Shown: piece after piece, positions 108 to 36,088 of the stretch
Layout: each line of letters starts with the position of its first letter
Numbering within the stretch: position 1 is the first letter of the stretch
Assembly (NCBI RefSeq): GCF_041248615.1
Contig: NZ_CP158426.1
Strand: one strand, 5' to 3'
Length of the DNA stretch: 64,000 nt
Source of the DNA: Escherichia coli
GTDB lineage: Bacteria > Pseudomonadota > Gammaproteobacteria > Enterobacterales > Enterobacteriaceae
The notes under the pieces: generated by a model
The model's database searches: none
What the model saw: the letters and a program-made list of their open reading frames with translations, nothing else
What the model was told of the DNA's origin: nothing
Made by a program: the position numbers and the translations under genes

Positions 108-389
108 ACGGACTGATTCTTCCGTAAATTCAGGTGTAAATCGTGGTGTGCCCATACGCTCCTCCTATGCTCAAACTATAGGGCAGGATCGTCTACCGGG
201 GTGGGGTCAGTCCACCAATGACTGAGAGGTGTCTGTTAAACCCGTGGCGATTCAGACATTACTCTTCCTATGTACACTGGAGTAGATTGAATAATCATAT
301 AATAATCAATCGGTTGAAATCATTTAGGGCTTTTGTATTAATAGTATTGAGATGGTTTGGTCATGGTTCCAGTTCATAAGGAAATAGTT

Positions 390-1442: not shown

Positions 1443-1443
1443 A

Positions 1444-6200: not shown

Positions 6201-6380
6201 ATTGATCTTCTTAGAAGTATTACCGTTAGATTCAACAAACAAATAATAATATCAACACATGACGACAATTTCTTTGGCTTGCTCCAACGTAAAATCCCTT
6301 CGGAAATATTGGGTGCCAAGTTTCTTAAATTGGAGAAATTTGGGGTTGTAGTGCCTGTTGATGATTTAAATAATACATGA
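3243..6380 (+). CDS. SMC/Rad50/RecF-like ABC ATPase with long coiled coil and central CxxC motif
   Basis: N-terminal Walker A YAPNGFGKSSFYDAVEWAI; long K/E/L/Q-rich coiled-coil middle; CPLCHKP near centre; C-terminal signature-like FSAAQLNILSLS, Walker B VIMIDDP, His-switch ISTHD. Confidence 0.8.
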   Translation: MKIKKVEIEGFRAYRFKEDGTFDFTNKDDTPSNFVAIYAPNGFGKSSFYDAVEWAITHNLDRFAGEYNKKNYEQAARSTKEDGVAQKILRNKDVPDNIPTRVTVFTTLPTPFEQSLGTVRSDSRDIRIGENKNKINGYFRKVVLSQDEIDRFLKEAKPQDRYKMFMESFGGEWEKARQELTILLNDNKAVLLNLEKNKNELQEQLDQPVDASTFIQFNKIASELVAEGESLPLVDETTIVNTQHELLEKIITRSHEINFSLNKKKILRDSISEYILKFPDISFRTTQIIEKKNRLEKINKGIEDVGRYKTFQSTLEKLTIEKKKISQSLNFIEELDGLSQEFLSLEFNLESARKKHREISYNYENEKTLLDNLFQTRNQNDADLSSIDKRCLSIRSTLENATVTYSNISNIQNKILNIVSTQTELEHKLNQVRSEYQKNKSELNKVSDLTITAKSLLSSDLSLIDLSSDLLKELNNLSQELNILVLHDQSIHNTQESLSAQMGVHERLIASGLEYLSLWPTNICPLCHKPHDSESSLREQVTNTDVISMLSKENAAKLEISSKRRSELNGKIESIVQKALEIKMSKLEVLSKKVNQQGNEIHREEQHYTALLAEKQSVQNQLNELQKAVAGLTKDELLARLDAELKELEAKKNEVIKNKLTLTKNINVKRTLITELSGAINLLNTQIHEMMSSSNYLKTKAYSEENGLSSEFLKEHYDDKRHFYLKNINGLNFEINNITSQLNDLQKAMIADEMWLDYEEMISEKENFEDYISKSEAVLQSYSSLLKQHFELPKYESLVELKDFLISSLDKETRLYNGLEERLGKYNLLSELLKTAESFVKSIKLQNDINETLGLIEIRKEVDLALTKERNQVIEELRNLIKSFFYEELINSIYKRIDPHPSLKKVVFRPDFDSSDKPGLNIVVSDEKGDMVSPILFFSAAQLNILSLSVFLASALHAKDDNGNVIDVIMIDDPIQSMDSINILSTIDLLRSITVRFNKQIIISTHDDNFFGLLQRKIPSEILGAKFLKLEKFGVVVPVDDLNNT

Positions 6381-11592: not shown

Positions 11593-12133
11593 ATCTTAAG
11601 AAGCTGCAGTTGAGTCATAGCCAGCGATCAAAATTGAGAAGACAAAACCGGGGAGAGGTGCCCGCAGTTTCTGCCCCAGCTCCCATCTTCAGGAAGATGT
11701 GTTTCAGGAATGCATTCGTGATGCTGGGGATAGCGGCAAGACGATTTTCTCATCGGGTAACTCTGCGGTATCGGAACAGTTGACGACGGCAGGGTGGTGA
11801 ATGGGAACCTCAGGATGAAGCGCTCGGGCAAGAGGGATGGACTGTGCTGAAGAGAACACTGACAGAACGAGCATGATGCTTGCAAAAAGGGGACTCTGGA
11901 TATTCATTGTTTATCTCCTGATGATATTCATCGCTCCAGAGAATACGCTTGCCACTCTTTTTATTTGTTTTCCTGAATTAAAAATGCCCGGTTTTATGTG
12001 GTTCTTCCGTAAACGTTATTACATTAATTAACATCTAGTTTCTATCTCCGAAATGAGGTAAAAAAATAATTGTCGTGGTTTTTATCAAACAAATTTACCG
12101 GCAGCTCAGATCCGAACTAATACCTGGAAATTC

Positions 12134-12182
12134 AAACCCCAAACCCCAAACCCCAAACCCCAAACACCAAACCCCAAACACC
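12134..12182. repeat. Tandem heptanucleotide repeat (AAACCCC/AAACACC) x7
   Basis: Read directly: four AAACCCC, then AAACACC, AAACCCC, AAACACC; complementary strand is (GGGGTTT)n. Confidence 0.9.
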
Positions 12183-12412
12183 ATTTCACCGCTGGCGTGT
12201 AAGGGGCTCTATATCTGTTTATTCAGGGATAGTTTTTTCTCCCGTGTGATTTCCGTTCATGTATCTGCTTCCGGTTAATCGTTTCCCAGCACAACCCGTC
12301 CCGCAAGGGTAAATGGCACGCCTGCTGCGCCCTTGCGGGATGGAACGATGCCGGGAAAGCGAACCGTCAGGCGATACGAAGACGAAAATCACACCACTGA
12401 CGGAGAAAAAAA

Positions 12413-13357
12413 ATGACTATGTCCCTGCATACCAAGATAAGTGCCCCTAACACGACAGCGGCGACCAGCGTATCCTCGCTGGATCTGTCAGGCTCCTCAA
12501 AAACGAAATGTTCAACAGCCAGAACCGATATTTATCAGACTGTTACCGACAGCATAATTGCGGCGCTGGAAACCGGAGTAAAACCTTGGGTGTGTCCTTG
12601 GCAGCGAGCTCCCGGTATGTCCGGTTTACCGTCCAATTACGCCACTGGTAAGGCTTACAGCGGAATGAATATCATGTTGCTTTGGTGCAGCGCGTCAAAA
12701 CAGGGATTCTGTGATTCACGCTGGATGACCTACAAACAGGCAAAAGCGGTAGGTGGGCAGGTGCGCAAGGGAGAACACGGCACTACCGCGATTTTCTATA
12801 CCACGCTGGAAAAGGAAAATGATAACGGAGAAACTGACTATATTCCTATGCTGAAAGCATTCACTGTGTTTAATGTTGAACAAATTGACGGTTTACTCCT
12901 GAGTGATGATGCCGTTTTTCCGGCAGAGATCTTTGAGCCATTACCACGTGCAGAAGCACTTTTTCGTAGTAGCGGTGCAACCATTATTGAAAAAGGACAG
13001 AATGCTTTTTTTACACCATCAACCGACGAAATTCGCTTACCTGAACGGTATCTTTTTATTGATGCTGCTAATTTCTACGCAACCGGCCTGCATGAGCTCG
13101 TTCACTGGAGTGGGGCAAAAAGTCGGCTGAACCGTGAAATGAAAGGGAAATTTGGCAGCGAGGGGTATGCGTTTGAAGAGTTGATCGCTGAGCTGGGGAG
13201 CGCATTCCTGATGGCGGATCTGGGGATAGTTGGAGAAGTTCTGCATGACAGTTATATCGCTTCCTGGCTTAAAGCACTGAGGAATGATAAACGCTATATT
13301 TTCAAGGCCGCCAGCGCGGCATCGAAAGCACATCGCTATTTGATGGATAAAAGCTGA
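12413..13357 (+). CDS. ardC: ArdC-like antirestriction protein (ssDNA-binding N-domain plus zincin-like metallopeptidase C-domain)
   Basis: DIYQTVTDSIIAALETGVKPW N-terminal ArdC-type motif; HExxH motif GLHELVHWSG in C-terminal half; hairpin after stop. Confidence 0.75.
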   Translation: MTMSLHTKISAPNTTAATSVSSLDLSGSSKTKCSTARTDIYQTVTDSIIAALETGVKPWVCPWQRAPGMSGLPSNYATGKAYSGMNIMLLWCSASKQGFCDSRWMTYKQAKAVGGQVRKGEHGTTAIFYTTLEKENDNGETDYIPMLKAFTVFNVEQIDGLLLSDDAVFPAEIFEPLPRAEALFRSSGATIIEKGQNAFFTPSTDEIRLPERYLFIDAANFYATGLHELVHWSGAKSRLNREMKGKFGSEGYAFEELIAELGSAFLMADLGIVGEVLHDSYIASWLKALRNDKRYIFKAASAASKAHRYLMDKS

Positions 13358-18514: not shown

Positions 18515-18880
18515 ATGATTGATGTCTTAGGACCGGAGAAACGCAGACGGCGTACTACACAGGAAAAGATCGCTATTGTTCAGCAGAGTTTTGAACCGGG
18601 AATGAAGGTCTCCCTTGTTGCCCGGCAACACGGTGTGGCAGCCAGCCAGTTATTTCTCTGGCGCAAGCAATACCAGGAGGGAAGTCTTACTGCTGTGGCC
18701 GCAGGAGAGCAGGTCGTTCCTGCCTCTGAACTTGCTGCTGCCATGAAGCAGATTAAAGAACTCCAGCGCCTGCTCGGCAAAAAAACGATGGAAAATGAAC
18801 TCCTTAAAGAAGCCGTTGAATACGGGCGTGCAAAAAAGTGGATAGCGCACGCGCCCTTATTGCCCGGGGATGGGGAGTAA
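18515..18880 (+). CDS. insC: IS2 transposase OrfA (InsC)
   Basis: [29 protein letters not shown]... matches recalled IS2 InsC; ATG at 18515 inside track ORF 18470..18880. Confidence 0.9.
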
Positions 18881-19743
18881 GCTTAGTCAGCCGTTGTCTC
18901 CGGGTGTCGCGTGCGCAGTTGCACGTAATTCTCAGACGAACCGATGACTGGAAAGATGGTCGCCGCAGCCGTCACTCAGATGATACGGATGTGCTTCTCC
19001 GTATACACCATGTTATCGGAGAGCTGCCCACGTATGGTTATCGTCGGGTATGGGCGCTGCTTCGCAGACAGGCCGAACTTGATGGTACGCCTGCGATCAA
19101 TGCCAAACGTGTTTACCGGATCATGCGCCAGAATGCGCTGTTGCTTGAGCGAAAAACCGCTGTACCGCCATCGAAACGGGCACATACTGGCAAAGTGGCC
19201 GTGAAAGAAAGCAATCAACGATGGTGCTCTGACGGGTTCGAGTTCCGCTGTGATAACGGAGAAAAACTGCGAGTCACGTTCGCGCTGGACTGCTGTGACC
19301 GTGAGGCACTGCACTGGGCAGTCACTACGGGCGGCTTCGACAGTGAAACAGTACAGGACGTCATGCTGGGAGCGGTGGAACGCCGCTTCGGCAACGAGCT
19401 TCCGGCGTCTCCAGTAGAGTGGCTGACGGATAATGGTTCATGCTACCGGGCTAATGAAACACGGCAGTTTGCCCGGATATTGGGGCTTGAACCGAAGAAC
19501 ACGGCGGTGCGGAGTCCGGAGAGTAACGGCATAGCAGAGAGCTTCGTGAAAACGATAAAGCGTGACTACATCAGTATCATGCCTAAACCAGACGGGTTAA
19601 CGGCAGCAAAGAACCTTGCAGAGGCGTTCGAGCATTATAACGAATGGCATCCGCATAGTGCACTGGGTTATCGCTCGCCACGGGAATATCTGCGGCAGCA
19701 GGCCAGTAATGGGTTAAGTGATAACAGGTGTCTGGAAATATAG
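18838..19743 (+). CDS. insD: IS2 transposase OrfB (InsD), DDE integrase domain
   Basis: Overlaps insC 3' end in a different frame as expected for IS3-family frameshifting; sequence matches recalled IS2 OrfB. Confidence 0.9.
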
Positions 19744-20342: not shown

Positions 20343-21098
20343 TTAAATTTGCATTGAGGTAGCGATATCGAGACGTTGCAGTTCGTCAATCGTGTAGATG
20401 CGGAACACATTCCTGTGGCGGGTTTCCAGTGGGATGTGTTGATGATTCACGATGACGTACTGGATGCTGTCAAACAGCCGTTCAAGACCGAGTTTTTTTT
20501 GCGGGTCTGGCACAATATAAAAAACGTAGATCCAGTCTTTACGCGTTCGGGCCAGTAAATGACTGGCTATGATCGACTGGTAACGGGCTTTGGTTTTCAG
20601 ATGGCGCTCGGTCTCGATGGCGATCACCGTGCCGCTGGGGAGGGCAATTAGCCCGTCCGGGCGGTGACTGACCTGATAACGACTCAGGAAAGTTGTGCGA
20701 TCGCCATGTATCCAGCCGCATGCGCCTTTTTTTTCGAGGATGATCCGCGCCATCTGATTATCAAGGTGATGTTCCAGCGTCCAGCCTGTGAGTTTTGAAG
20801 GCTCAAACCGGGCCGGGAAAATTTCATCATCAGGCTGTATTACGACCGCCAGCCCGTCGTTGGTTATTCCCCACAATGAAATTTTCTTCGTACGTGATAC
20901 CAGGACGTGTTTTTGTATTAACCCCATTCCCTCAACTTTTGAAAGCAGGGAATACAGTGATTTATGATCCCTGAAGCCGAACAGCAGCATCAGTGTTGTA
21001 AAATCACTGTACGTTTCTTCTTTCAGGAAATTCAGCAGTCGTATTATCTTCTCGCGATGTCGGGTCTGGCGCTCGCGGTATGCGGTGATAAGCATCAT
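20343..21098 (-). CDS. Hypothetical mobilization protein, possible MobC-like small relaxase
   Basis: 251-aa ORF 8 nt downstream of coupling-protein gene; function inferred from position only. Confidence 0.35.
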   Translation of the reverse strand: MMLITAYRERQTRHREKIIRLLNFLKEETYSDFTTLMLLFGFRDHKSLYSLLSKVEGMGLIQKHVLVSRTKKISLWGITNDGLAVVIQPDDEIFPARFEPSKLTGWTLEHHLDNQMARIILEKKGACGWIHGDRTTFLSRYQVSHRPDGLIALPSGTVIAIETERHLKTKARYQSIIASHLLARTRKDWIYVFYIVPDPQKKLGLERLFDSIQYVIVNHQHIPLETRHRNVFRIYTIDELQRLDIATSMQI

Positions 21099-21106
21099 TT
21101 CCCCTT

Positions 21107-23032
21107 CTAAAAGTTCAGTAACGAGGGATGATCCTCTTTACCTGCACCTGCACCTGCACCTGCACCTGCACTTGTTGTTGTGTGTTTCTCGTCCGGCTTG
21201 TCAAAAAAGAGATCGGGTTGTGTTGTCGTGATAACTGATGTTGATGACGGTCCGGATGACATTTCTTCCTCGTCAAAATTCAGGGCAATGTTGACTCTTG
21301 CGGCGGTGGCGGCAACAGCGGGCGATACGGCACAGATCGCCAGTTCCCTTTTTTTAACCCTGATGGGAGAAATTAGTGAAGCAGAGGGGAGGGCTTTGGT
21401 GGTGAATATAAAACTGACAAAATCAGGCAGGTTCAGCACCATATTACTGTCGATAAAGAAACGCTCGGCCTGCCTGATGGTGCGTTCACTATCGATAGTC
21501 TCTGTCAGCACCGCATCTGTTTTGGCTTTGCGGACTTCGTCATCGACTAATATGGTGCCTGACATTCTTGCCACCCAGTCAGCGGTATCAGGGTCCATGA
21601 CACGATAAACCAGCTTGAATTTGGCATTCTCCACAACTGCACCCACCACGGCATCGCTTTTCAAATCCGCCGGGCAATCTTTTAAATCGGCAATGGATTG
21701 GTGGTCCATAATAATGTGTACACCTTTATCCCGTGCCGCACCTAAGCCTTCCAGCGCAGGCTTGGATAAATGGTATTTCAGTTCGGAAAGGTAAATAGCA
21801 ATAGGGCGGGGTGTGTGGTTTACCCGATCGCGCCTTTCTGCCAGCTGGTACAGGCGAACCAGCAGCATGCGCTGAGCGGTAATAATTTTGCTGTTGCGCA
21901 TCGAGCCAATCACATAGCAGCAACCACCGTTATCAAATATTGTATTGAGGGAAAATCCTGCCGGTGCATTGATGGCATTGAGTAAGGCCAGCTCCTCAAT
22001 TTTCCCGAAAAAGGCTTTTATCTTATCAGCGATACTTTGGACGTATTCCCCGTTATACACATCCCGAATGGTTGAGGTCGTATTACGGGCGACAAATTGT
22101 GCAGCTATTCGGGCTGCTTTGCGATCGTCAATGCGATAAAAGTCAGACTCTTGTCCTTTCTCTGCCAGACTGAAACCCGCGACAAAAAGTTCTTCCAGTT
22201 CATCAGCGGTGATATCGTTAATCAGGTTTAGCTGGTATGCCTGTTTCCTCAGGTCAATTAGGGCAAAGGATTTCCCTGCATCCTCGCAGGCTTTCCGGTA
22301 AAGGTGTGGGGCCCACTCATCATCTTTGGGGTCCATAACAAATACGCCTTCACCGGCCAAAATACTCTGATAAAGTAATATCCCGGTGGCCACCCCTTTA
22401 CCGGCCCCCGTGGTCCCGATGATATCGGCATGTTGTTTTTGCCAGTCTTTTAACGGCAGGTACATCGGCTGTTTCATTCTGTTCATGCCGATAAAAATAC
22501 CTTTACTCAGGTTAATATAATCCTCCGGGTTATAGTGCAATGTTTCCGGTAGCAGCGATTTCACCGTTCGGACATCAGTACGTAATTCCCTTTCCAGAGT
22601 GGTTTTTCTGACGAACCGACTTTTTACTTTATCGAGTTCAGGTGTTAACACCCTGCGCAGAAGAATATGGAAAACAAAACCGGCTGCGGTAGAGGTAATC
22701 AGTATCAGCCAGGAGAGGACAGTATTGCTGGTGGCTATCTTTATTCGGTATATCCATTGAAATAATTCGTTCACCACGGGCGCTATTGTGCCAAACAAAA
22801 AGCACAGTATGGAAAAAACTATCACCAGCTTTTTCCATAAAGGGGCTTTGAGTCGTTCATCGCTTTTCATCGACGCGAAGAATGGCATGGTCAGCCCTGA
22901 GAATAGCGCCAAAATAGGTTGATGCTGGTGCATAAAAACGAGCAGTCCCAGCATGCCGTCCACTATCGGTGATAGTGAAACGATCAGCTTATTTAACACC
23001 ATAATGCTTCCTTTATCGGCCATTCGCCCCAC
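21107..23032 (-). CDS. Type IV coupling protein (VirD4/TraD/MobB-like)
   Basis: N-terminal TM helices; Walker A GTTGAGKGVATG; 641 aa; C-terminal Gly-Ala repeat. Confidence 0.85.
   Translation of the reverse strand: MGRMADKGSIMVLNKLIVSLSPIVDGMLGLLVFMHQHQPILALFSGLTMPFFASMKSDERLKAPLWKKLVIVFSILCFLFGTIAPVVNELFQWIYRIKIATSNTVLSWLILITSTAAGFVFHILLRRVLTPELDKVKSRFVRKTTLERELRTDVRTVKSLLPETLHYNPEDYINLSKGIFIGMNRMKQPMYLPLKDWQKQHADIIGTTGAGKGVATGILLYQSILAGEGVFVMDPKDDEWAPHLYRKACEDAGKSFALIDLRKQAYQLNLINDITADELEELFVAGFSLAEKGQESDFYRIDDRKAARIAAQFVARNTTSTIRDVYNGEYVQSIADKIKAFFGKIEELALLNAINAPAGFSLNTIFDNGGCCYVIGSMRNSKIITAQRMLLVRLYQLAERRDRVNHTPRPIAIYLSELKYHLSKPALEGLGAARDKGVHIIMDHQSIADLKDCPADLKSDAVVGAVVENAKFKLVYRVMDPDTADWVARMSGTILVDDEVRKAKTDAVLTETIDSERTIRQAERFFIDSNMVLNLPDFVSFIFTTKALPSASLISPIRVKKRELAICAVSPAVAATAARVNIALNFDEEEMSSGPSSTSVITTTQPDLFFDKPDEKHTTTSAGAGAGAGAGKEDHPSLLNF
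21137..21166. repeat. Hexanucleotide tandem repeat (CACCTG)x5 within coupling protein C-terminus
   Basis: Read directly; encodes (Ala-Gly)n on the minus strand; in-frame repeat. Confidence 0.85.
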
Positions 23033-23270
23033 GACATCGCCCCCTCAATTCGCCCCACGGTGTTGGGCGAAAAGCTGGGGTGAAAGCAGGGGCAAACAGA
23101 GGTGGCTGCGGTGCAGCCATGTGCCGGTAGATAGACTTTCCGGCCCGAAACGACGTGCACCAGTTCATGCGGGCTGGACGCCCTTATTGCCTGGCGCATG
23201 GGGGTAATGGCGTGGCTGTACGCCGCGCCAAAACCCCCAGGGTCAACGGCGGCACACCGTCGCCCGCTAC

Positions 23271-23633
23271 GCGCGACCAACCCCTTTAAGACGCGCGTTT
23301 CGCCTGTTTTTTTCTCGCAAGCTCCAAAAAACGGGAACGCTGCTTTAAAGGGGTTGGTCGCGCCTGATTGGTAATATCCCCGCTGGGGCGGGAAATATTA
23401 CCTGGCTTGACGGTGTGCGGGGCAAGCCCCCCACAAAAAACGGCACGTGGGCGTGCCTTTTTGCTCGCTGGGGCGGCAAAATTTTTGCGGCTCCCCCGGC
23501 CTGCTTAATTCGCTGTGGGCGAATGTGCGCAGATGGATGCGGTACCTGAAAATTAACAATTTCTGCGAAATTGAATTTTCTGTCCGCGTTCCACTGGCTT
23601 ATTTCACGGCTTAACAATTTCTCCGAAATTGAA
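23271..23633. other. Candidate oriT / relaxosome assembly region with inverted and direct repeats
   Basis: 20-bp near-perfect inverted repeat (23271-23290 vs 23344-23363); two copies of TTAACAATTTCNCGAAATTGAA (23553-23575, 23611-23633), each containing dyad CAATTTC-N3-GAAATTG; lies between coupling protein gene and T4SS genes. Confidence 0.5.
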
Positions 23634-23709
23634 GCCAGAAATTAGCCAGCCTCAACCCCGCCGTCTGTCAGTCTGTGGCGCTGTGAGGCATAGTGTAATG
23701 TCCGGTGGT

Positions 23710-24015
23710 TCACACCTGTTCGCGATATATTTCAGCCCGGCATTCCTGTTCAGCCTTTAATACCTCCCGGTAGGTTTCATCATCGACTTTCGTTCCCTGA
23801 TTTTCGGCGTATCGTCTGAGTTTGTCAGCATCCTGTTCATTAAGACGCGAAAGATGATGTCGCAATAAACTGATCAGTCTACTTTCATAGATCTCATAGT
23901 AAAGGCCGCATCCCTGATTCGCTTCCTCAGAGAACTTTCTGTACACGGCTCCGACCGATATTCTGTCATGATGCATTGAGTGGATGTTGGAAATAAAAAG
24001 GTTTTCTTTATCCAT
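23710..24015 (-). CDS. Hypothetical protein, 101 aa
   Basis: ORF only; charged and helical in character. Confidence 0.45.
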   Translation of the reverse strand: MDKENLFISNIHSMHHDRISVGAVYRKFSEEANQGCGLYYEIYESRLISLLRHHLSRLNEQDADKLRRYAENQGTKVDDETYREVLKAEQECRAEIYREQV

Positions 24016-24063: not shown

Positions 24064-24366
24064 TTATCCTCTGAGCCTACCAAATCTGGACAGGATTTTA
24101 TTCACCGCCTCTGGGTCGGCACTGGCACATTCTCCGAGGAAAGCTTTTCTGGCATTCAGTGTATGACCGGGTAAAAATCCGTGTTTATTCTTTTTGACGA
24201 TATTAAAGAAAGTTTTTTCAGCTGAATGGCACTCACTCCCTCCACTGTTTCCGGTCGCTTTCCCGTACATACAAAGCACGACTTCGCATGGGTCAGAGGC
24301 GAAGCAATAAACAGGGAGCACAATGGCAATGCACAGCATTACCGTCGCAATGGAGGCGTATTTCAT
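24064..24366 (-). CDS. Small secreted Cys-containing protein (T4SS-associated)
   Basis: N-terminal signal-peptide-like hydrophobic segment MKYASIATVMLCIAIVLPVYCFA. Confidence 0.5.
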   Translation of the reverse strand: MKYASIATVMLCIAIVLPVYCFASDPCEVVLCMYGKATGNSGGSECHSAEKTFFNIVKKNKHGFLPGHTLNARKAFLGECASADPEAVNKILSRFGRLRG

Positions 24367-24410
24367 GATGAAGTCCTTACCATAATTTCTGTACCAGGAT
24401 ATCGGTATAT

Positions 24411-24806
24411 TTAATGTGAAAAATAAATATAGGTATCGCTACACGTCAGGCACTGAGTTGCAGGTTGATATTCAATAACACCATTTGCGCCATGCTGGCG
24501 AAGCCAGCTTGTTGCAGTAAAGAATGCTGTGCCTGATGGTGCAGCAACAACAATACGCGTCGAATGCGCAACTGCGTAAAATACGTCGGGGGTCCAAAGT
24601 GTCTCGTTAAACTGCGTTGAGTGAACGGACAATAACCACTTCCCATTAACGATTGGGGAAGGATTAATAACGGGGGTGTCATTCCATTGCGATAAATTGA
24701 TATTCACTGACTCGCCCGATTTATCCCATTCAACAGATACCGGTGGGGGTGGTGACGAACAGCCGGTAAGCACCATTAAAAATAACAGTATATTGATGGT
24801 TTTCAT
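24411..24806 (-). CDS. Lipoprotein, 131 aa
   Basis: Signal peptide with lipobox LTGCSS; start overlaps virB11 stop by 1 nt. Confidence 0.6.
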   Translation of the reverse strand: MKTINILLFLMVLTGCSSPPPPVSVEWDKSGESVNINLSQWNDTPVINPSPIVNGKWLLSVHSTQFNETLWTPDVFYAVAHSTRIVVAAPSGTAFFTATSWLRQHGANGVIEYQPATQCLTCSDTYIYFSH

Positions 24807-25849
24807 TATGCTTTCATCTCCTCGAAGAAGGCATTACGGTGCAGTGGCCGGAAATAGATATCATTCATTCGGCGCACGTTGCCGTCTAAATCAATACTGA
24901 CAATAACATCCAGACTGTCCAGCACTTTGCGTAACATAAACGTGTAGGGCAGCCGGGCGCATTGTGGGTTTTCATAACAGCGAGTAATAAAACCGTCTAC
25001 CGCTTCTATTGCTGAACCCGCATGCAGGGAAGTCATACTGCCTTCATGGCCGGAGCCGGTTATTTTGAGAAAATCCCAGGCTTCACCACCGCGCACTTCG
25101 GTTAACAATATACGGTCGGGGTTCATGCGATAATTCCAGCGCAGAAGACTGGCTGGCGTCACAATCGAGCCTTTTTCATCTGCTGATTCGGACGGATAGA
25201 AGAGGTGGACATAGTTTTTATGAACAAAAAAGGTGATTTCCGGATTATCTTCAATGGTCGTAATACGCAAATGGCGAGGAATAAAACCAATCAGCATCTT
25301 CATGTAGGTTGTTTTCCCGGTACCGGTTTCCCCGGCCACCGCGATAGTTTTACCGTACTCCACGCACTTCTCCATAAAGCGCGGGATATCTTTGGCGGTA
25401 TACAGGCTCAACAATTCCTGATCGTGCGTCTGGGTGGTTTCTGAGCCCGTCACCCTGTTATAAAAACCGGCGTCGATATAGCTCTGGTGGGGAATTTGTA
25501 CCTGTGACGGCTTTCGGATAGTAATGGAGACGGTGTTGCGCTCACAGGCCGGAGGGACAATAACCTGACAACGTTCACCGGATTCCAGCGTGGCTGACAG
25601 CCCCGGTTTGATATCTTCAATATTGTCGCAGTGATGCTTTGCCAGGCATCTGGCGAAGTTGTAGCACCCCTCATAATCCAGCGAAACACTGTGCAGCTCC
25701 CAGATACCATTAATTTTGGTAAATAGCTCGCCCGGGCGGTTGACGGCGATTTCTGTTAGTCCAGGATGAGCAATAAAATCGCCAAAAAATCGCTGTGTAT
25801 AGCGATCGAGAGAGATGTTTTTCATGTGATATCCTTGTATCGGATACAT
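24806..25849 (-). CDS. virB11: VirB11-family T4SS ATPase
   Basis: Walker A VAGETGTGKTT; size and position at end of virB operon. Confidence 0.9.
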   Translation of the reverse strand: MYPIQGYHMKNISLDRYTQRFFGDFIAHPGLTEIAVNRPGELFTKINGIWELHSVSLDYEGCYNFARCLAKHHCDNIEDIKPGLSATLESGERCQVIVPPACERNTVSITIRKPSQVQIPHQSYIDAGFYNRVTGSETTQTHDQELLSLYTAKDIPRFMEKCVEYGKTIAVAGETGTGKTTYMKMLIGFIPRHLRITTIEDNPEITFFVHKNYVHLFYPSESADEKGSIVTPASLLRWNYRMNPDRILLTEVRGGEAWDFLKITGSGHEGSMTSLHAGSAIEAVDGFITRCYENPQCARLPYTFMLRKVLDSLDVIVSIDLDGNVRRMNDIYFRPLHRNAFFEEMKA

Positions 25850-25862
25850 TTGTGGAGGGAGT

Positions 25863-26870
25863 ATGTCGAAGACGAAAGTACTGTTCGCTTATTGCCATGA
25901 ACTCGGGCGCTGTTTGTCCATTGATGAAGCGCGAATGGAATTTTTTTCCAGAAAGCCGGAAGAAAGGAAGCGGTTCACTTTTTCATGTAGCGATCGCAAC
26001 TGTGATGTCACCATTAGCGGTGTTAACTATCACGTCAAAGCTGAAGATGGTGAGAAATTCAAGGCTGCGCACTTCCGTTCACCTCATCCTCACAAGTTCG
26101 GATGTGAATGGCTCGAATTCACCGAGGATGCGGATCAGGACCGGCGTCCAGACGAGTCAGAGGCTGATTTCACAGAACGAAAAGCAAAGCAAAAGCTGAC
26201 GGACTATATCAACTGCTTTGACCCTTCAATAGATGATCCTGATGGCGAACCATCCGATCCCGTGAAGCTTGTTACGCCTGTTCACACAAGAAAAACTGTC
26301 GGGGATGATGATAAAACGGGTACAAATGAAGAGCCCCGCTGGAGTCGCTACACGCGAACCAACCAGCTTCAGCGACTTATCGACACATGGCAGGAAGCGA
26401 AAGAAACGCTGCCTCAGGATGAGTTCCGGGCGTTGAGACTCAGGATCATGCACCATGATCAGGTCTATCTACATGAATATATAACGCATATACAGCGTGG
26501 ATTGGCTAATCCGTATTCGGGCGTCATCTATGGTGGTGGGACCCTAATGCATCGGTATGGTCGGGGTTTTCTGATTAATTTCTTTGATAAACATGAGGGG
26601 AAGCCTGTTCGCCTGTATGTCAGTAAAGATCTGATGGCGAAAGGACGGTTTGGTCATTATATCGATGAGATTCTGGACACTAAAAACGTCAGATATTTCC
26701 GTATATTTTTACTCAATCCGGTTGTTTCCGAACGGGAAAACAGCACAGGAAAAAGCGTTATCAACCTTGAAATATCAAAGCTGCGTCAACTGGCTATTTA
26801 CTACGAACTGAACTCCAGCAGAGAAGATGAATCTTCATCGGTGGAGACGGAGGGGGAAAGTCCGGCGTAG
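25863..26870 (+). CDS. Hypothetical protein, 335 aa, Cys/His-rich N-terminus, antisense to T4SS operon
   Basis: Long ORF on opposite strand between virB11 and virB10; N-terminal Cys/His cluster (CHELGRC, CSDRNC, HPHKFGC); acidic C-terminus. Confidence 0.5.
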   Translation: MSKTKVLFAYCHELGRCLSIDEARMEFFSRKPEERKRFTFSCSDRNCDVTISGVNYHVKAEDGEKFKAAHFRSPHPHKFGCEWLEFTEDADQDRRPDESEADFTERKAKQKLTDYINCFDPSIDDPDGEPSDPVKLVTPVHTRKTVGDDDKTGTNEEPRWSRYTRTNQLQRLIDTWQEAKETLPQDEFRALRLRIMHHDQVYLHEYITHIQRGLANPYSGVIYGGGTLMHRYGRGFLINFFDKHEGKPVRLYVSKDLMAKGRFGHYIDEILDTKNVRYFRIFLLNPVVSERENSTGKSVINLEISKLRQLAIYYELNSSREDESSSVETEGESPA

Positions 26871-27187
26871 CGGGCTAATGTTGTCACAAGAATGAGTATA
26901 TCGGTGACGTCAGGCAGCGATATCTGCTTATGTGCCAGCCGGATATCGTCCGGGGAAAAAGGCGGTGCATCCAAAGGGCCTTCACTGATGGTGATACAGA
27001 ACGGTTGCTCTTCTCCTGAGTCAATACTGAGTTCTATCAATGCGCCCCCGGCACGATAGCATGTCATGACTATTCTTCTGATTCCGGTAAGGTGTGACAG
27101 TAAGTCGTTGACGACAGCGTTGCTGAAATCGTCCCTTACGATGACGTCTGTCGCCGTAACACCAAACAAAAACTTTCGATTACTCAC
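26801..27187 (-). CDS. Hypothetical protein, 128 aa, coupled to virB10
   Basis: Start overlaps virB10 stop by 8 nt; 3' end overlaps the convergent 335-aa ORF by 70 nt, so one of the two calls may be wrong. Confidence 0.35.
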   Translation of the reverse strand: MSNRKFLFGVTATDVIVRDDFSNAVVNDLLSHLTGIRRIVMTCYRAGGALIELSIDSGEEQPFCITISEGPLDAPPFSPDDIRLAHKQISLPDVTDILILVTTLARYAGLSPSVSTDEDSSSLLEFSS

Positions 27188-28430
27188 TCTTCATCCTCAG
27201 CGTGTAGATGCCTGAAAAATCAATATCCTGCCCTGTGACCAGGTTGATGATTTCACCCTGATTTTTGTAGAGCGTCGGTGGGATATTAATGCTGTTTTCC
27301 AGCGTGGTACGTGCCATATCCGCCATAGCCTGACGGCTGTTTTCTGTATAGTCGGTATTCCGATCTTTCTGACCGGCGCTGTTGGATGCCCATGCCCCAA
27401 TATCAGGGATCATACCGACCAGTAATGCACCTCCAAATCGCTCCCTGAAATGCGAGTCTATCCAGCCATCAACGCCAGCCTCGCCCAGTTCTCCGGCAGC
27501 ATTCGTATCGACCAGCGGAATATCAAGGAAAGGGGGCTGGCGGGTACGCAGTTTCGTGATGATGATGAATGCGCGTCCCTGTCCATGCGTCATTCCTGTT
27601 TCTGCACCAGTCTGGTACATCCCCGTGGCGGTGGTCCCTTTTTCTATCAGCTTTGTATTACCGCTGGCGCTCCAGATGTCTTCGGCGATCGTGCAGCGGA
27701 TTTTTCCAGCCCGATCTGAGACAAAACGGTAATCCAGTGAGCAGGGAATAGCGGTATTTTCCGGCACGTACAGATCGGGATTATAAGGAATTCGCCGGAC
27801 CGCTGTCGGGGACTGTTCCGGCTGTGGCGACGAGGTGTTTAGCGGCTGACCGGTATCAGAATATTGTGTCTCTGACGGCTGTCTGGCTGAGGATGCCTGC
27901 GTCATTTCCTGATACCGGGTCCGTACCGGATTTCGTACCGCTGAACCTGAACCCTCCCGGCGCACCAGAAAACGGGCTTTATCTAAGTCGGGCAGAGCCT
28001 CCGATCCGTTGGGTGTCGTACTACCAGGGTTGTTGTCCGCCGGTTCTGGTGTTTTCGCGTCGATATAGTGCGTACCCAGATCGGTACGCTGTCGAGAATC
28101 GGTCCGATCTGTCGGGGCCACAGTTTCCTGAGGCTTTTCTTTACCTGGCTGCCAAAGAAGATTGTGGTATATCCAGTTACCCCCCCACGCCAGTGCAATC
28201 AGGGCAACGGCAGCGAATGCCAGAAAAGCGGTGGCTTTCCCCTGCTGGCGCTTTTTCAGTTTATTGACAGCCGGCTGTATTGGATCGTTATTGTCATCAT
28301 CCTGCCAGGTGTGAAGCACAGCTTCACGCTTTGCGCGGGCCTCGCGCTCAAGCGCAGCAATATCATCATCCTTCTGTGTCGGACAGGACCTGGATTCATC
28401 TGGCACAGGATGCAGATGTTCGTCATTCAT
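27180..28430 (-). CDS. virB10: VirB10/TrbI-family T4SS protein
   Basis: N-terminal TM anchor, Pro-rich linker, conserved C-terminal domain; position in operon. Confidence 0.85.
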   Translation of the reverse strand: MNDEHLHPVPDESRSCPTQKDDDIAALEREARAKREAVLHTWQDDDNNDPIQPAVNKLKKRQQGKATAFLAFAAVALIALAWGGNWIYHNLLWQPGKEKPQETVAPTDRTDSRQRTDLGTHYIDAKTPEPADNNPGSTTPNGSEALPDLDKARFLVRREGSGSAVRNPVRTRYQEMTQASSARQPSETQYSDTGQPLNTSSPQPEQSPTAVRRIPYNPDLYVPENTAIPCSLDYRFVSDRAGKIRCTIAEDIWSASGNTKLIEKGTTATGMYQTGAETGMTHGQGRAFIIITKLRTRQPPFLDIPLVDTNAAGELGEAGVDGWIDSHFRERFGGALLVGMIPDIGAWASNSAGQKDRNTDYTENSRQAMADMARTTLENSINIPPTLYKNQGEIINLVTGQDIDFSGIYTLRMKSE

Positions 28431-28449
28431 GTGTACAGTTCCTCAGCTG

Positions 28450-29349
28450 TTAATTGGTTGCGGTTTTTACCACTCGCTCAACTTGCGGGGAGACTGTGGC
28501 ACCATCTGCGACCTGAACCCTGCCGAAACCACGATTTTCCAGGCCGACCACAGCGCCACCGGAACGGAGGACCAGACGGGGGGTAACTTCCTGAATAACC
28601 AGTACGGTGAAGTTGCCTTTCCTGCGGACACTGCTGTTAACCACATGCTCCTGGCCGTTTAGCTCTTTTGTCAAAGAGGGAATGGATTTGGCTGGGGAGA
28701 AGCCCACGAACGTAAAGCGACCATCGTCATAGGCGAAGTCCGGAACGATACGTGTGCTATTGCTCCCCGGATATTTGAGATAGTCCCAGTTTCGTGGCGT
28801 CTGCGCGGCGTTAAGAGCCTGCTGGATATCGGCCTGCTGTTGTTTCTGCTCCCGTTCCCGCGCTTTGGTTGTGACTTCACGGCCCGATTTTTCGTGTGCT
28901 TCATCGGGATAGCGATAACTCACCTGAAAAGCAGGCTGCTGCGATGATTTTTCATCGATGACGTTTAGCTCGACGTTATACAGCCGCCGAGTGGTAACGA
29001 TTAGCATGTTGGTATGCCAGTCGTGACTGTTGGGAGGAATGACCACCTGCGCTGTATTACCGTCCACTCCGGGGGCACCCTGAATCAGGGCTACCGGGCG
29101 GATACTGACCCGGTTTGCGTCTGTTGTGGCTTCCCATGCGTCCTCAAAACCTGGTTTAGCACTGATAACCGCTTCGTCATTGTCAAAGATGAGCGTGGTT
29201 ACGAAACCGGGTCGGGTATTGACGACAGTGACGTTAAACGGGTTATAGACAACCTGCTGGAGACGGGCGTCGTAGCGGCTTGCTTGTGGTATTGCAGCAC
29301 CCCAGGCTATACCGCACATCGCCAGTGCGAAAAGGATGATAATTTTCAT
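28450..29349 (-). CDS. virB9: VirB9/TrbG-family T4SS protein
   Basis: Signal peptide; size and synteny; 1-nt overlap with virB8. Confidence 0.85.
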   Translation of the reverse strand: MKIIILFALAMCGIAWGAAIPQASRYDARLQQVVYNPFNVTVVNTRPGFVTTLIFDNDEAVISAKPGFEDAWEATTDANRVSIRPVALIQGAPGVDGNTAQVVIPPNSHDWHTNMLIVTTRRLYNVELNVIDEKSSQQPAFQVSYRYPDEAHEKSGREVTTKAREREQKQQQADIQQALNAAQTPRNWDYLKYPGSNSTRIVPDFAYDDGRFTFVGFSPAKSIPSLTKELNGQEHVVNSSVRRKGNFTVLVIQEVTPRLVLRSGGAVVGLENRGFGRVQVADGATVSPQVERVVKTATN

Positions 29350-30032
29350 TATTCAACTCCTCTGATTTCACGATCTGCCTGCCAACTTGTCACCGTAAAA
29401 CCGAACGGGTTAACTTCCCGCTCTGTATCGCTCATTTCCTTACTTGGGTCGGAGTGGAATGTCAGGTGGGCATCCCAGTATTCTGTACGCGTACTGCTAT
29501 CAGCGAGGCGGCGGATAGTTTTTTTGTAACGGAGGGTGGCGACTTTATCGGGGGCAGTGCCTTCGGTGATCTGATTAGACAGGATGTCGATATGTACGGT
29601 GTGGGCCTCATTCTGGTACACCTTATCCGGGGCGTCTTTTCCTGAATAAAGTGCCAGATAATCATCATTAACCTGAGGGCTGTTATAGACCTGTACCGTT
29701 GAATAATCGTCCTGTAGGGCAGGGTAAATGTAACGTTCACGCACTCTGACGTAACTTGAGGTCATCGCCTTCTGATAAGCTTCTTCCGCTGTCAGACTCG
29801 TTTGTGACGCTCGGGTGACGTGTTCCAACCGTCCGGTATGATTATCAACAGCATACAGCTCAATAACTGTCTGTTTCAGCGGTAATATCAGCACCACAGT
29901 GGTGAGTGCCAGTATGGCAATGAGTAAGCCCGCGCCACCAACCATAAATCCCGCCTTCGTGGCGCGTTTGTCCCGCTCAATCATTTTCTGCTCAAAGGTG
30001 CGGGAATCAGCAATGATTGACTGTTCACTCAT
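29349..30032 (-). CDS. virB8: VirB8-family T4SS protein
   Basis: Single N-terminal TM segment; size and synteny. Confidence 0.8.
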   Translation of the reverse strand: MSEQSIIADSRTFEQKMIERDKRATKAGFMVGGAGLLIAILALTTVVLILPLKQTVIELYAVDNHTGRLEHVTRASQTSLTAEEAYQKAMTSSYVRVRERYIYPALQDDYSTVQVYNSPQVNDDYLALYSGKDAPDKVYQNEAHTVHIDILSNQITEGTAPDKVATLRYKKTIRRLADSSTRTEYWDAHLTFHSDPSKEMSDTEREVNPFGFTVTSWQADREIRGVE

Positions 30033-30162
30033 GATTGTTTAACTCCGCCATCATCTGAGGCGTGTTTACCGGGATGCCATTCCCACTAAAGGCCAGGGGA
30101 TGGGGTGACTGTGCACAGCCGTAAAGCGCGCACAGTAAAATCAGCGCAATCAAGCGTTTCAT
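30025..30162 (-). CDS. virB7: VirB7-like small lipoprotein, 45 aa (not in ORF track)
   Basis: Hand-translated MKRLIALILLCALYGCAQSPHPLAFSGNGIPVNTPQMMAELNNHE; lipobox LYGC; stop overlaps virB8 start. Confidence 0.5.
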   Translation of the reverse strand: MKRLIALILLCALYGCAQSPHPLAFSGNGIPVNTPQMMAELNNHE

Positions 30163-30245
30163 GGGATGTTTCCTCAGTGGGTTGGATAGAGGGTAGTGTT
30201 AGCGCCGGGGGGATTGACGGAAATAGTATGCAAGGGATGACAAGT

Positions 30246-31310
30246 TTAACGATGAAATTTCTGAACGGTTGTTTCTCTTGATTTTGCCAGCCGTCGGGCC
30301 TCGTTCCTGGCGATCATTTGCTCAATGGCATACTTACGTGCCTGAGCAGCTCTGTATCCCGGGCCGCTGCCGGGTTTATCTGTACTGGCATCTCTCCATC
30401 CCTGAAGATTGTCCTGAATTGCGCGGTTTGTCTGCTTCCCGGCTCCTGCGGCTAATTTCCCTGCACCAAACGCCGCTGCGCCTATACCCACGGCGGACAG
30501 TCCCTGCATGGAGACAGTCGCTCCCGCCCCGGCTAGTGCTCCGGCCAGTTTTGCGGAAAGGTATACCATTATTGCCGCGCAGACCCCGGCGAGACAGACC
30601 TGAGCGCCTAGCTCCACAATATTAGATTGTGCAGATATTTGTGTGGCAATATCTAAGCGGGAGTTTAAATAATTAACGACCACTCGTAGCGACAATGCAG
30701 AAAACAGAACCGTTAATATGGCTGCGAAAATATTTTGCAGCCAGTTGTTAAACATGGGACGTAAAAAGCCATACATGAGACAAAAGATGAAAACGGGGGC
30801 TGTGATGCTGAGCAGCAAAACCATGACCTCTGCGATCATTGCAACAAAGGCTGTAATAGTCATTAAAACGAATATCCCAAGCCACACATAAAATTGAGCT
30901 GTGATGCCCTCGTCTTTTATGTACGTTGAATTATCCATGTCGTGTAACGTTTTGCCTAATACCTTCGCTTTATCCCATAAGCTATCCAGTAGTTGCCATA
31001 TATTATCGTTGCCGGAAAAGCCGTCTTTTAAGCCATTGATAGCGTCAATGACCCCGTCGAGATAACCGCTGACATTGGCCACAAAGGACAGGATGATGGC
31101 CATTCTTATGATGTCCCACATGACGTCCTCCATGGGTGCGGACAACTTACCTGCCAGGCTCTGGTATCCACGCCACATGATATAAAGTGTCGCTGACGTT
31201 GCCGCCAGTCCCAGCATCATGGCGGAGTATGACATCATCAGTCCCTTTGTTGCGTCGGTGACTCCCCCTATCAGGTGTTTTTCAACACCGATAAATACAC
31301 CACCAGGCAT
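30246..31310 (-). CDS. virB6: VirB6/TrbL-family polytopic membrane protein
   Basis: Multiple hydrophobic helices; Gly/Ala-rich C-terminal region; synteny. Confidence 0.8.
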   Translation of the reverse strand: MPGGVFIGVEKHLIGGVTDATKGLMMSYSAMMLGLAATSATLYIMWRGYQSLAGKLSAPMEDVMWDIIRMAIILSFVANVSGYLDGVIDAINGLKDGFSGNDNIWQLLDSLWDKAKVLGKTLHDMDNSTYIKDEGITAQFYVWLGIFVLMTITAFVAMIAEVMVLLLSITAPVFIFCLMYGFLRPMFNNWLQNIFAAILTVLFSALSLRVVVNYLNSRLDIATQISAQSNIVELGAQVCLAGVCAAIMVYLSAKLAGALAGAGATVSMQGLSAVGIGAAAFGAGKLAAGAGKQTNRAIQDNLQGWRDASTDKPGSGPGYRAAQARKYAIEQMIARNEARRLAKSRETTVQKFHR

Positions 31311-31320
31311 ATTAACCTCA

Positions 31321-31548
31321 CTATGAATTCAGGTTGGGAGTGGGGGCATTTAACTGTTGAATCTGAAAATGAGCTTCATTGGCATTTTTACAGTTTTCAG
31401 AGGCATCGCCGGTTTTCAGGCATTTTTCATATACTGTTTTCAGCTCATCGGGATGATCTTTGTACCACTGGGTAGTTTTGGTTTCGTCTCTGCAGCCGCA
31501 AATGATGAGGAATAAAATGGACAGGAACGAAAGGGTTAATAAACGCAT
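31321..31548 (-). CDS. Small lipoprotein, possible entry-exclusion protein
   Basis: MRLLTLSFLSILFLIICGC signal/lipobox; located between virB5 and virB6; internal start of track ORF 31321..31608. Confidence 0.5.
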   Translation of the reverse strand: MRLLTLSFLSILFLIICGCRDETKTTQWYKDHPDELKTVYEKCLKTGDASENCKNANEAHFQIQQLNAPTPNLNS

Positions 31549-31559
31549 GTGAAACTCCT

Positions 31560-32267
31560 TTAACGGTTTAAATCGGAGGTTGGTGCAGTTAACTGCTGCT
31601 GGTTCCACTGTTTGAGACGCTCATCCTCCAGCACTTTCCCGCGTTTTTCTGCCGCCTTCACACTCATTTCCCATTGATCAGTGAGCGTGTTCAGCATCAC
31701 TGATTTCAACTGAATACTGTTGGCAAGGTCCAGCGACTCCTTTGAGTCTTTAGAGAGTGCAATCCGGTTTGAAAGATTATTGATCTCACCCAATGTTTGG
31801 CTGACCTGATCCTGGATCTCGTCAGTCTGCTCAAACTGAATTGCCTTATTGATAACCTGTTGTTTGCAGATATCGGCATAGCTTCCGGACTGCGCCGCGT
31901 TGCACGTATCGAAAACCCGGTACTTTGCGTATAGCGCATCGAACTGCCCGGCGATGCCACCAGAAAGTAGCAGGTCGTTGAGTGTCTGGCCCGGCTTACG
32001 CAGTTTTTCCAGATCTGATTTAAGACTCTTCGCCTGATCAACGAAATCAACAATATTCCGTACACCGGTGGCCGTTGCTAACTGGTCTTTATATGCCTGA
32101 ATTTGGCTCTCATAATGCTGCGCTGTTTGTATCCAGCGTTGTGCCTCTTTCAGCCATTCGAGCTCACGTAGTGGGTCAGCATCCACCAGAACAGGGATAC
32201 CTGCGTGTGCCATCGGGCTGATGATCACACACGCAATAATTAATGCATGAAAACGCCGTTTCATCAT
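31560..32267 (-). CDS. virB5: VirB5/TrbJ-family minor pilus protein
   Basis: Signal peptide MKRRFHALIIACVIISPMAHA; coiled-coil content; synteny; start chosen downstream of virB4 stop. Confidence 0.7.
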   Translation of the reverse strand: MMKRRFHALIIACVIISPMAHAGIPVLVDADPLRELEWLKEAQRWIQTAQHYESQIQAYKDQLATATGVRNIVDFVDQAKSLKSDLEKLRKPGQTLNDLLLSGGIAGQFDALYAKYRVFDTCNAAQSGSYADICKQQVINKAIQFEQTDEIQDQVSQTLGEINNLSNRIALSKDSKESLDLANSIQLKSVMLNTLTDQWEMSVKAAEKRGKVLEDERLKQWNQQQLTAPTSDLNR

Positions 32268-32284
32268 GAATCTCCTGTGGATTT

Positions 32285-35029: not shown

Positions 35030-35039
35030 AGATAACCTC

Positions 35040-35333
35040 TCAGCTCATCAGCAGTGCGCCGATTTCACTGCCTCCACCAATCAGGATGCCGCCAATGATG
35101 ATGTAGGCGCACTGGGACAGGCTTTCGCCTTTCCAGAGTGTCTTGTAACCTACCCAGATCACGGCCACGGTAATGGTGATGGCCGCCAGGCCATTAAGGC
35201 CGGTGGCGACTTTTTCCATCACGGTATTTGCGCGTTGAAAGCCATCGGCAAAAACCGGAGGTACAGAACAAACGATGAGTGCAAATGCGGAAACATGACT
35301 GAAAGCGGCCTTAAGTTTGCAGCAAAGTGTCAT
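35040..35333 (-). CDS. virB2: VirB2-family pilin
   Basis: 97 aa with two hydrophobic segments; position after virB1. Confidence 0.7.
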   Translation of the reverse strand: MTLCCKLKAAFSHVSAFALIVCSVPPVFADGFQRANTVMEKVATGLNGLAAITITVAVIWVGYKTLWKGESLSQCAYIIIGGILIGGGSEIGALLMS

Positions 35334-36088
35334 TATTCTTTCTCCTCACGGGGTGACAGGGAGAGGCTCCGGCGCAATGACGGCGTAGAGATCTTTTCTA
35401 TGGCAATTTTCTTCTGGCGGAATTTTGAGGGGACGCCACGAACCACGCCCTTCGGCCAGATCACGCAGGGACGTAACTGGTCACCTGCAGGCGTAGGCTT
35501 CAGGAACGGCGGGGGTGTCAATTTATCCTCGTGGGTTCCGGGTACGGCATAGTGGGGAGCAGCAGCGTAACCGATTCGTTGCACATAGCTGGTTCCGGAA
35601 AAAGCCGCTTCCGGCTGTTCTCCGGTACGGAAATTGCCGGAGTAGTAGCAACTCAGTGCTCTTTTCAGCGAGCCGCCGCGTCGGTAACAGTCGTTGAGGA
35701 TGTGTTCGAAAACAGACAAATTGGTACAGGGATCAAGCAGCTCAGAGGCTGTCACACCGTAATGATGGAAATTGGTGCTGGTAATTTGCATCAGCCCCAC
35801 AGAATAACGGCGGCTCTGCGCCATAAGGCGACCTATGATTCGCTCGGCTCTTTCCCGGCTGGTGGGCTGATGAGAAATGATTTTATTGTGACCGAAGGTG
35901 CCTGAGCCCTTTGGGATAATTTCGGCGATCGCATAAGGGTTAAAATTGGACTCCACCCTTACGACGTCGAGTGCTGTGGACGGATGAATGCTGGTGGCAC
36001 ACTGCATGGCCACCGCCAGAAAGGCAGATGTGGAAAGCATAGTAGCCTCGGGAATGCGGGCAGCGTACATAGCCAAAGAACCATGCAT
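35333..36088 (-). CDS. virB1: VirB1-family lytic transglycosylase (SLT domain)
   Basis: SLT motifs VESNFNPYA and GLMQIT; first gene of operon; exact start uncertain. Confidence 0.8.
   Translation of the reverse strand: MHGSLAMYAARIPEATMLSTSAFLAVAMQCATSIHPSTALDVVRVESNFNPYAIAEIIPKGSGTFGHNKIISHQPTSRERAERIIGRLMAQSRRYSVGLMQITSTNFHHYGVTASELLDPCTNLSVFEHILNDCYRRGGSLKRALSCYYSGNFRTGEQPEAAFSGTSYVQRIGYAAAPHYAVPGTHEDKLTPPPFLKPTPAGDQLRPCVIWPKGVVRGVPSKFRQKKIAIEKISTPSLRRSLSLSPREEKE

Follow-up and report, generated by a model that had tools for sequence, protein, structure and literature searches.

A strain-variable Ala-Gly hexanucleotide repeat in the C-terminal tail of a MobB-type coupling protein of an Escherichia coli integrative and conjugative element

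The coupling protein TraD of F-like plasmids has an unstructured C-terminal extension with a QQP repeat upstream of the segment that interacts with TraM; the length of the QQP region differs between the functional plasmids F, with 5 residues, and R1, with 23 (PMC3245843). The C-terminal aromatic residue of TraD and its carboxylate are bound by the tetramerisation domain of TraM, as described in PMC3159463 with reference to Lu et al. 2008. A different module, an origin of transfer (oriT) with mobB, mobC and a VirB-type type IV secretion system (T4SS), is known from CloDF13, pCRY/pMET1, the high-pathogenicity island (HPI) HPI-ECOR31 and ICEKp1 (PMC2262945, PMC6761156, PMC7431656). In CloDF13, mobB and mobC are needed for nicking and mobilisation at oriT (Nunez and de la Cruz 2001, as reported in PMC2262945). 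In ICEKp1, mobilisation depends on mobB, and the oriT is situated between virB11 and mobB (PMC6761156). The window analysed here, a stretch of 64,000 nucleotides from Escherichia coli (contig NZ_CP158426.1 of assembly GCF_041248615.1), carries a chromosomal integrative and conjugative element (ICE) integrated at tRNA-Asn. Its mobB gene contains a perfect hexanucleotide repeat encoding Ala-Gly pairs. The repeat is a real length polymorphism, with 1 to 6 pairs among strains.

The features of mobB that bear on the repeat are, in window positions:

21107-23002, minus strand: mobB, MobB-type type IV coupling protein, 631 aa from the RefSeq ATG (open reading frame (ORF), Pfam and fold)
21140-21171, minus strand: perfect hexanucleotide repeat; the period extends 2 nt into the preceding Ser codon
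21173-21181, minus strand: (ACA)3 Thr run directly upstream of the repeat (alignment of relatives)
21203-21214, minus strand: DLFF motif, residues 597-600, the N-terminal end of the repeat-bearing linker (alignments)
21110-21124, minus strand: terminal motif SLLNF-COOH, [SP]LL[DN]F in the close family

Tandem Repeats Finder reported period 6, 5.3 copies and 100% matches at 21140-21171 on the plus strand, with the unit ACCTGC. An independent scan for period 6 gave a single perfect run of 32 nt at the same position. By chance, about 2e-11 such runs would be expected per window, and in 200 shuffles period-6 runs reached at most 18 nt. The plus strand reads ctcttt, ACCTGC x5, AC, ttgttgttg. The minus strand reads AGT (GCA GGT)x5 AAA and is in frame within the ORF 21107-23032, as had been noted in a first-pass annotation of the window. 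This annotation had placed a (CACCTG)x5 repeat at 21137-21166. The feature is the same and the repeat is real, but the coordinates were off by 3-5 nt, and the CACCTG phase gives four full copies with partial ones at the ends. The (GCAGGT)x5 array at 21140-21169 codes for (Ala-Gly)5, residues 612-621 of the 631-aa MobB. The protein ends with ...HTTTS-AGAGAGAGAG-KEDHPSLLNF; the longer upstream part is PDLFFDKPDEKHTTTS. Ten residues (KEDHPSLLNF, 622-631) follow the run, so that Ala-Gly does not form the very C-terminus. The Gly-Ala tail of the annotation is instead an internal spacer, and the last five residues are a motif conserved in the family.

Alleles were read in 40 of the approximately 200 members of the 90%-identity cluster of MobB. 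Together with a metagenome scan, which contributed n=6, they gave these numbers of Ala-Gly (AG) units, n:

n=1: Citrobacter freundii, K. aerogenes, Citrobacter gillenii, E. coli A38
n=3: K. grimontii; as VG(AG)2 in E. coli
n=4: Raoultella; E. coli 2018-06-4CC and YF-1
n=5: the window
n=6: metagenome contig L050, a 97%-identical gene (third backbone)

Synthetic versions of the window protein with 0-10 AG units were matched exactly against about 15 billion proteins. When translated from the long start, the upstream GTG at 23032 that yields 641 aa, this backbone was present with n=2 (2 contigs), n=3 (11), n=4 (14) and n=5 (7-9 independent contigs with the identical protein, among them one complete chromosome). 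Exact-backbone alleles with n=0, n=1 and n=6-10 were not found among these proteins. With the RefSeq start, all four alleles were again present: E. coli had n=3, n=4 and n=5, K. oxytoca had n=3 and Citrobacter sp. had n=2. In K. grimontii, n=3 and n=5 occurred on a second backbone with six different residues. The chromosome of E. coli NRZ14408 (NZ_LT599825.1) contains the whole window at 100% identity. E. coli 2018-06-4CC and YF-1 encode the window protein with one AG fewer; across 4946 bp, 2-3 substitutions and one 6-bp gap separate these strains from the window. Together with the allelic series, this one gap against 2-3 substitutions indicates that the repeat changes faster than its surroundings, in whole units and repeatedly. 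All alleles from n=1 to n=6 retain the reading frame and the terminal motif. The annotation had expected variation in number without frameshift and proposed a comparison of homologues. The number is indeed not uniform: it ranges from 1 to 6 in relatives and from 2 to 5 on an otherwise identical backbone. Identical expanded proteins in different genera show that the elements were recently shared between hosts.

The nearest relatives have one AG unit (...TTTS-AG-KEDHPSLLNF). At least two units were found in 0 of 120 family representatives and in 0 of 39 species-level loci outside the sublineage of the window. A metagenome scan for at least six units yielded 25 loci, 24 of which are unrelated Ala/Gly-rich repeats. 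These 24 metagenome contigs (L051-L074) carry (GCAGGT)n with n=6-14 at a GC content of 0.41-0.74, apparently within Ala/Gly-rich repeat proteins. The unit is thus not specific to mobB. The Thr run beside the Ala-Gly run, T3 in the window, is T4 in some (AG)1 relatives (L001, L008), a second small length variation within the same linker.

The observations are best explained by a coding microsatellite that gains and loses units by replication slippage in a permissive linker, which results in a near-neutral, hypermutable length polymorphism. We assign this explanation a probability of roughly 0.7; slippage as the mechanism and near-neutrality are both inferred. The array consists of at least three perfect head-to-tail units, and alleles on identical or near-identical sequences differ by whole units, as expected for a variable-number tandem repeat (VNTR) evolving by slippage. 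The ancestral state would be a single GCAGGT (...S-AG-K...) that was duplicated in one young mobB sublineage; GT..GT microhomology in AGT-GCA-GGT-AAA flanks this seed unit. Whole units may then have been gained and lost by replication slippage on the perfect hexanucleotide array. With a unit of 6 nt, the protein gains or loses one Ala-Gly pair per step and the frame is kept. In this way, the spacer between DLFF and SLL[D/N]F-COOH would have been stretched from 18 to 26 residues. Since Ala and Gly are small, uncharged and flexible, their addition most likely changes the function little or not at all. Purifying selection on the body of MobB and the identical expanded proteins across genera indicate that the expanded alleles reside on functional, recently mobile elements.

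The product of 21107-23002 is a type IV coupling protein of the VirD4/TrwB/TraG family, in agreement with the first-pass annotation. RefSeq labels it 'type IV secretory system conjugative DNA transfer family protein'. Pfam matches are TrwB_AAD_bind with 31.3 bits (cutoff 20.5) and T4SS-DNA_transf with 25.4 bits (cutoff 20.1). An AlphaFold model was built from a 140-sequence alignment. Its body has a mean predicted local distance difference test (pLDDT) score of 89.7 and matches TrwB (1e9s, E 1.8e-16) and also Cagbeta (8dol), in keeping with a TrwB-like fold of a nucleotide-binding and an all-alpha domain. Residues 2-130 form long hydrophobic helices in the model, as expected for a predicted N-terminal membrane anchor. 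The nucleotide-binding body (residues 176-535) shares 28.5% identity with CloDF13 MobB (E 1.3e-20). The Walker A P-loop GTTGAGKG is present, and K202 is invariant in the alignment. The Walker B site (residues ~403-407) reads IYLSE in the window versus the family consensus IFLDE: the aspartate is replaced by serine and the glutamate E407 is invariant in the same 140 sequences. The NCBI name 'TraM recognition domain-containing protein' was dismissed as evidence on the tail, because the underlying Pfam TraG-D_C match covers residues 427-505 of the 641-aa ORF and thus the folded body.

Relative to (AG)1 relatives, the ratio of nonsynonymous to synonymous substitution rates (dN/dS) is 0.06-0.08 for the mobB body, which corresponds to purifying selection. 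It is 0.33-0.42 for the tail, a more relaxed value based on small counts. The divergence of the two parts also differs at synonymous sites (dS). Apart from the repeat, the last 61 codons (21107-21290) are nucleotide-identical in the window and in a C. gillenii locus (L009), while the bodies differ at 43 positions with a dS of about 0.10. In L001 and L008, the tail dS of 0.26-0.30 is far above the body dS of 0.04-0.10. The contrast between tail and body suggests that recombination had breakpoints close to the 3' end of mobB.

The full-length model shows residues 585-631 as coil at a pLDDT below 50. The Ala-Gly run lies in this C-terminal tail, which is predicted to be disordered and is acidic. 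DLFF and the C-terminal [SP]LL[DN]F are kept across 120 family representatives (76-97% identical) and 39 species-level loci. The sequence that separates them is acidic, rich in Pro, Lys and Thr, and divergent; Asp and Glu make up 35% of the tail linker. In the window this linker has 26 residues versus 18 with a single AG unit. In 122 more distant representatives (~30-56% identical), the protein usually closes with an acidic and then a hydrophobic residue; 29 end with I, 28 with L, 9 with F and 18 with a ...DVD-type sequence. These ends resemble the acidic, flexible tail of F-like TraD, and by this analogy the repeat is a spacer within a probable docking tail and does not form its docking end. 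Natural frameshift alleles of mobB were also observed. They are altered just after DLFFD, where IAGRETHNNKCR and a stop replace the distal tail. In these tail-less alleles, which occur in Citrobacter and one metagenome-assembled genome (MAG), the sequence ends with DLFFDIAGRETHNNKCR and a stop. The tail-less or altered alleles are the proteins P0122, P0126, P0133 and P0130, with Citrobacter freundii, Citrobacter sp. and an 'Acinetobacter' MAG as hosts; P0122 alone is present on 7 contigs. One further allele lacks the stop codon and is extended by EKGK.

AlphaFold was used to examine docking of the tail: the last 62 residues of MobB were joined to MobC through a (G4S)5 linker and modelled with 29 paired rows and divergent MobC rows. 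MobC had a pLDDT above 90 and the tail of about 30, and the tail did not dock; with shallow pairs, a monomer and no DNA, this is a weak negative result that does not speak against docking in general. In the full-length MobB model, the tail did not dock in cis on the body.

The closest precedent for the MobB repeat is the QQP repeat of TraD; the Ala-Gly array is a new case of a known kind. Each is an in-frame, low-complexity repeat whose length varies and which lies, upstream of the extreme C-terminus, in a coupling protein's unstructured tail. They differ in the protein and the secretion system, F-type TraD versus a MobB/CloDF13-type protein with a VirB-type T4SS, and in composition, Gln/Pro versus Ala-Gly from a perfect hexanucleotide. 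The TraD tail has 150-200 residues, whereas the MobB tail has about 47. Unlike the TraD case, the MobB variation is found on otherwise identical sequences and hence on a microevolutionary time scale. The TraD-TraM interaction offers a second parallel: both tails are acidic and flexible and have a conserved aromatic or hydrophobic end with a free carboxylate after a variable segment. Binding is demonstrated for TraD and TraM; the MobB tail did not dock on MobC in the fusion model. Coding hexanucleotide VNTRs are also familiar from enterobacteria, for example as typing loci in multiple-locus VNTR analysis; they are in frame, change by slippage of whole units and vary among strains. Unlike these, the Ala-Gly repeat is located on a mobile element and in a conjugation protein. 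Two further comparisons were rejected. An ON/OFF phase-variable contingency locus does not apply, since the unit is a multiple of three inside an ORF and the frame is always kept. The likeness to the eukaryotic/viral Gly-Ala repeat of EBNA1 was dismissed, as context and mechanism differ.

Several observations weigh against near-neutral slippage and bear on an adaptive reading, raised in the first-pass annotation as a possible tuning of relaxosome docking. In this reading, the linker is a ruler between two docking motifs, and the AG number would heritably modulate the contact of MobB with the relaxosome or some other partner and thereby tune the frequency or specificity of ICE transfer. The linker from DLFF to the last five residues has 16-19 residues in 122 of 122 unexpanded relatives, although these linkers fall into 72 distinct sequences that are on average about 50% identical in pairwise comparison. 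A length that is kept while the sequence diverges suggests a spacing constraint between DLFF and the terminal motif. The expanded alleles, with 20, 22, 24 and 26 residues, are the sole exceptions. The conserved length hints at a constraint under which the expansions would not be neutral. Moreover, the contig counts of the alleles do not equal independent isolates. The docking role of the terminal motif is inferred by analogy with TraD-TraM (PMC3159463). Tuning would further agree with the conservation of both flanking motifs, with the acidic-then-hydrophobic C-termini of distant relatives, as in the TraM-binding tail of TraD (PMC3159463), and with repeated shifts of copy number on at least two backbones. 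Lengthening of a flexible tether is as a rule better tolerated than shortening, which agrees with the observation of expansions only. We nevertheless consider tuning unlikely. The tail stayed at a pLDDT of about 30 in the MobC fusion model, tail-less frameshift alleles persist on several contigs, and the linker preceding DLFF (linker 1) is more variable, with 15-22 aa, so the tail tolerates indels. Ala-Gly is the type of flexible spacer that rarely disturbs tethered motifs, and the allele-frequency pattern is no more than mutation alone would yield. A stronger version makes the microsatellite a heritable and reversible rheostat in a length-constrained linker, a contingency locus that grades the efficiency of transfer or the choice of partner without ON/OFF switching; it seems quite improbable.

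Decay of an ICE that no longer transfers, with the expansion as one among several degenerative changes, would fit the IS3-family insertion that adjoins mobC, the tail-less and stop-loss alleles among the relatives and the replaced Walker B aspartate (YLSE). However, the ICEKp1 MobB has its Walker B aspartate likewise replaced and is needed for mobilisation (PMC6761156). The insertion is intergenic, and the (AG)4 strains lack it. mobB has an intact ORF, and the NCBI Prokaryotic Genome Annotation Pipeline (PGAP) gives mobC and the virB genes as complete coding sequences with no pseudogene flags. With the low dN/dS of the mobB body and the recent horizontal movement implied by identical expanded proteins across genera, decay is very unlikely. 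An effect at the RNA level, by which the AG number changes mRNA folding or ribosome behaviour and hence expression of the mobC relaxase, draws on the close spacing of the genes. The mobC start is just 8-11 nt beyond the mobB stop, 33 nt lie between the end of the repeat and the mobC ribosome-binding site downstream of it, and the array has five Shine-Dalgarno-like AGGUG motifs. For the mobC initiation region, a predicted accessibility of 0.40-0.45 at n<=2 drops to 0.30 at n>=3, and the local minimum free energy becomes more negative with n. Yet the predicted shift is small and reaches a plateau at n=3, ribosomes finishing mobB would unfold the region anyway by translational coupling, and pausing at internal Shine-Dalgarno-like sequences is disputed. 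We hold little belief in such an effect, slightly less than in decay. Nothing was found in favour of a sequencing or assembly artefact or a chance low-complexity match. The identical sequence in a complete chromosome and 7-9 independent contigs, the other copy numbers in independent assemblies and the low chance expectation make this practically negligible.

The length polymorphism has a practical consequence. Since the length of mobB changes faster than point substitutions accumulate, the copy number is usable as a fine-scale marker of strains or of the ICE. Such a marker tracks an ICE common to E. coli, Klebsiella, Citrobacter and Raoultella. The MobB tail, in the family of the clinically important ICEKp, combines two short conserved motifs with a linker of conserved length and variable sequence. 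This pattern suggests an unstudied docking interface in MobB-type tails. The natural series from n=1 to n=6 and the tail-less frameshift alleles are a ready variant set for probing the interface and its spacing.

The neighbouring features of the element are:

20343-21095, minus strand: mobC, MobC-family (MOB_C-type) relaxase candidate (NCBIfam and fold)
23003-23709, no strand: non-coding region of 0.7 kb with long inverted repeats upstream of mobB
24064-36040, minus strand: VirB-type type IV secretion cluster, virB1 to virB11, Cag12-like and TrbM-like genes (annotation and Pfam)
48423-49931, minus strand: tyrosine integrase (48423-49694) and tRNA-Asn (49856-49931), the ICE integration end (annotation)
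18515-19743, plus strand: IS3-family insertion between mobC and hchA, with programmed frameshift (annotation and comparison)

The module shares the gene order, the adjacent VirB-type T4SS, the MobC family NF041423 and the MobB homology with CloDF13, pCRY/pMET1, HPI-ECOR31 and ICEKp1. Integration at tRNA-Asn is shared with ICEKp and HPI. The cargo differs, as the window has no yersiniabactin locus, and the Ala-Gly expansion is absent from the other sampled family members. A plasmid-borne locus was rejected; megablast against plasmids gave just two partial matches of 80-85%. Beyond the virB genes, the element encodes AlpA-, DUF2857- and TraR-like genes and cargo, followed by the tyrosine integrase and tRNA-Asn.

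RefSeq labels mobC 'MobC family replication-relaxation protein'. The protein matches NF041423 over its full length with 362.8 bits (cutoff 200). The predicted fold comprises a winged helix and a nuclease-like domain, the latter by weak matches. A Pfam search gave no match. A tblastn search of MobC against the CloDF13 record NC_002119, which is old and poorly annotated, also gave no match, so the link of MobC to CloDF13 is based on the literature and the family name in NCBIfam. mobC is the next gene after mobB in 36 of the 39 related loci where this was checkable. The IS3 element is missing from the 99.8-99.9% identical islands of E. coli 2018-06-4CC and YF-1, which indicates a recent insertion.

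The inverted repeats of the non-coding region include GGTAATATTTCCCGCCCCAGCGGGGATATTACC and CGCGACCAACCCCTTTAAAG...CTTTAAAGGGGTTGGTCGCG. By analogy with the oriT position in ICEKp1, HPI-ECOR31 and pMET1 (PMC2262945, PMC6761156), the region 23003-23709 probably holds oriT. In HPI-ECOR31 and pMET1, oriT was described with two nic sites within an inverted repeat. A conserved ORF of 101 aa (23710-24015) lies beside the candidate oriT region. It has no match in Pfam or NCBIfam, is conserved in pCRY/pMET1-type elements and is named 'dopa decarboxylase remnant' in some records. It is a candidate for a TraM-like accessory protein that could bind the MobB tail.

Other repeats were noticed in the window. 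An intergenic (CAAACCC)x7.3 array at 12133-12183, perfect over 12133-12165, is located about 230 bp upstream of an ArdC anti-restriction gene (12413-13357). A short-read contig of the same island (L004) ends exactly at 12133. As a non-triplet repeat near a promoter, the array could be phase-variable. Two adjacent arrays at 58299-58394 lie in a hypothetical prophage gene (~57912-59000). One has a period of 10-11 (TGTCACGACA-like, 5 copies), and the other is the 12-mer ACAGATAAAGAT in four copies. They resemble replication-origin iterons inside a lambdoid O-like gene. At the left end of the window, the four-gene cluster at 357-6380 encodes, by RefSeq annotation, a ComEC/Rec2-family protein, an 'ABC-three component system protein', a 'middle component 1' and a 1045-aa AAA ATPase and is a candidate anti-phage defence system.

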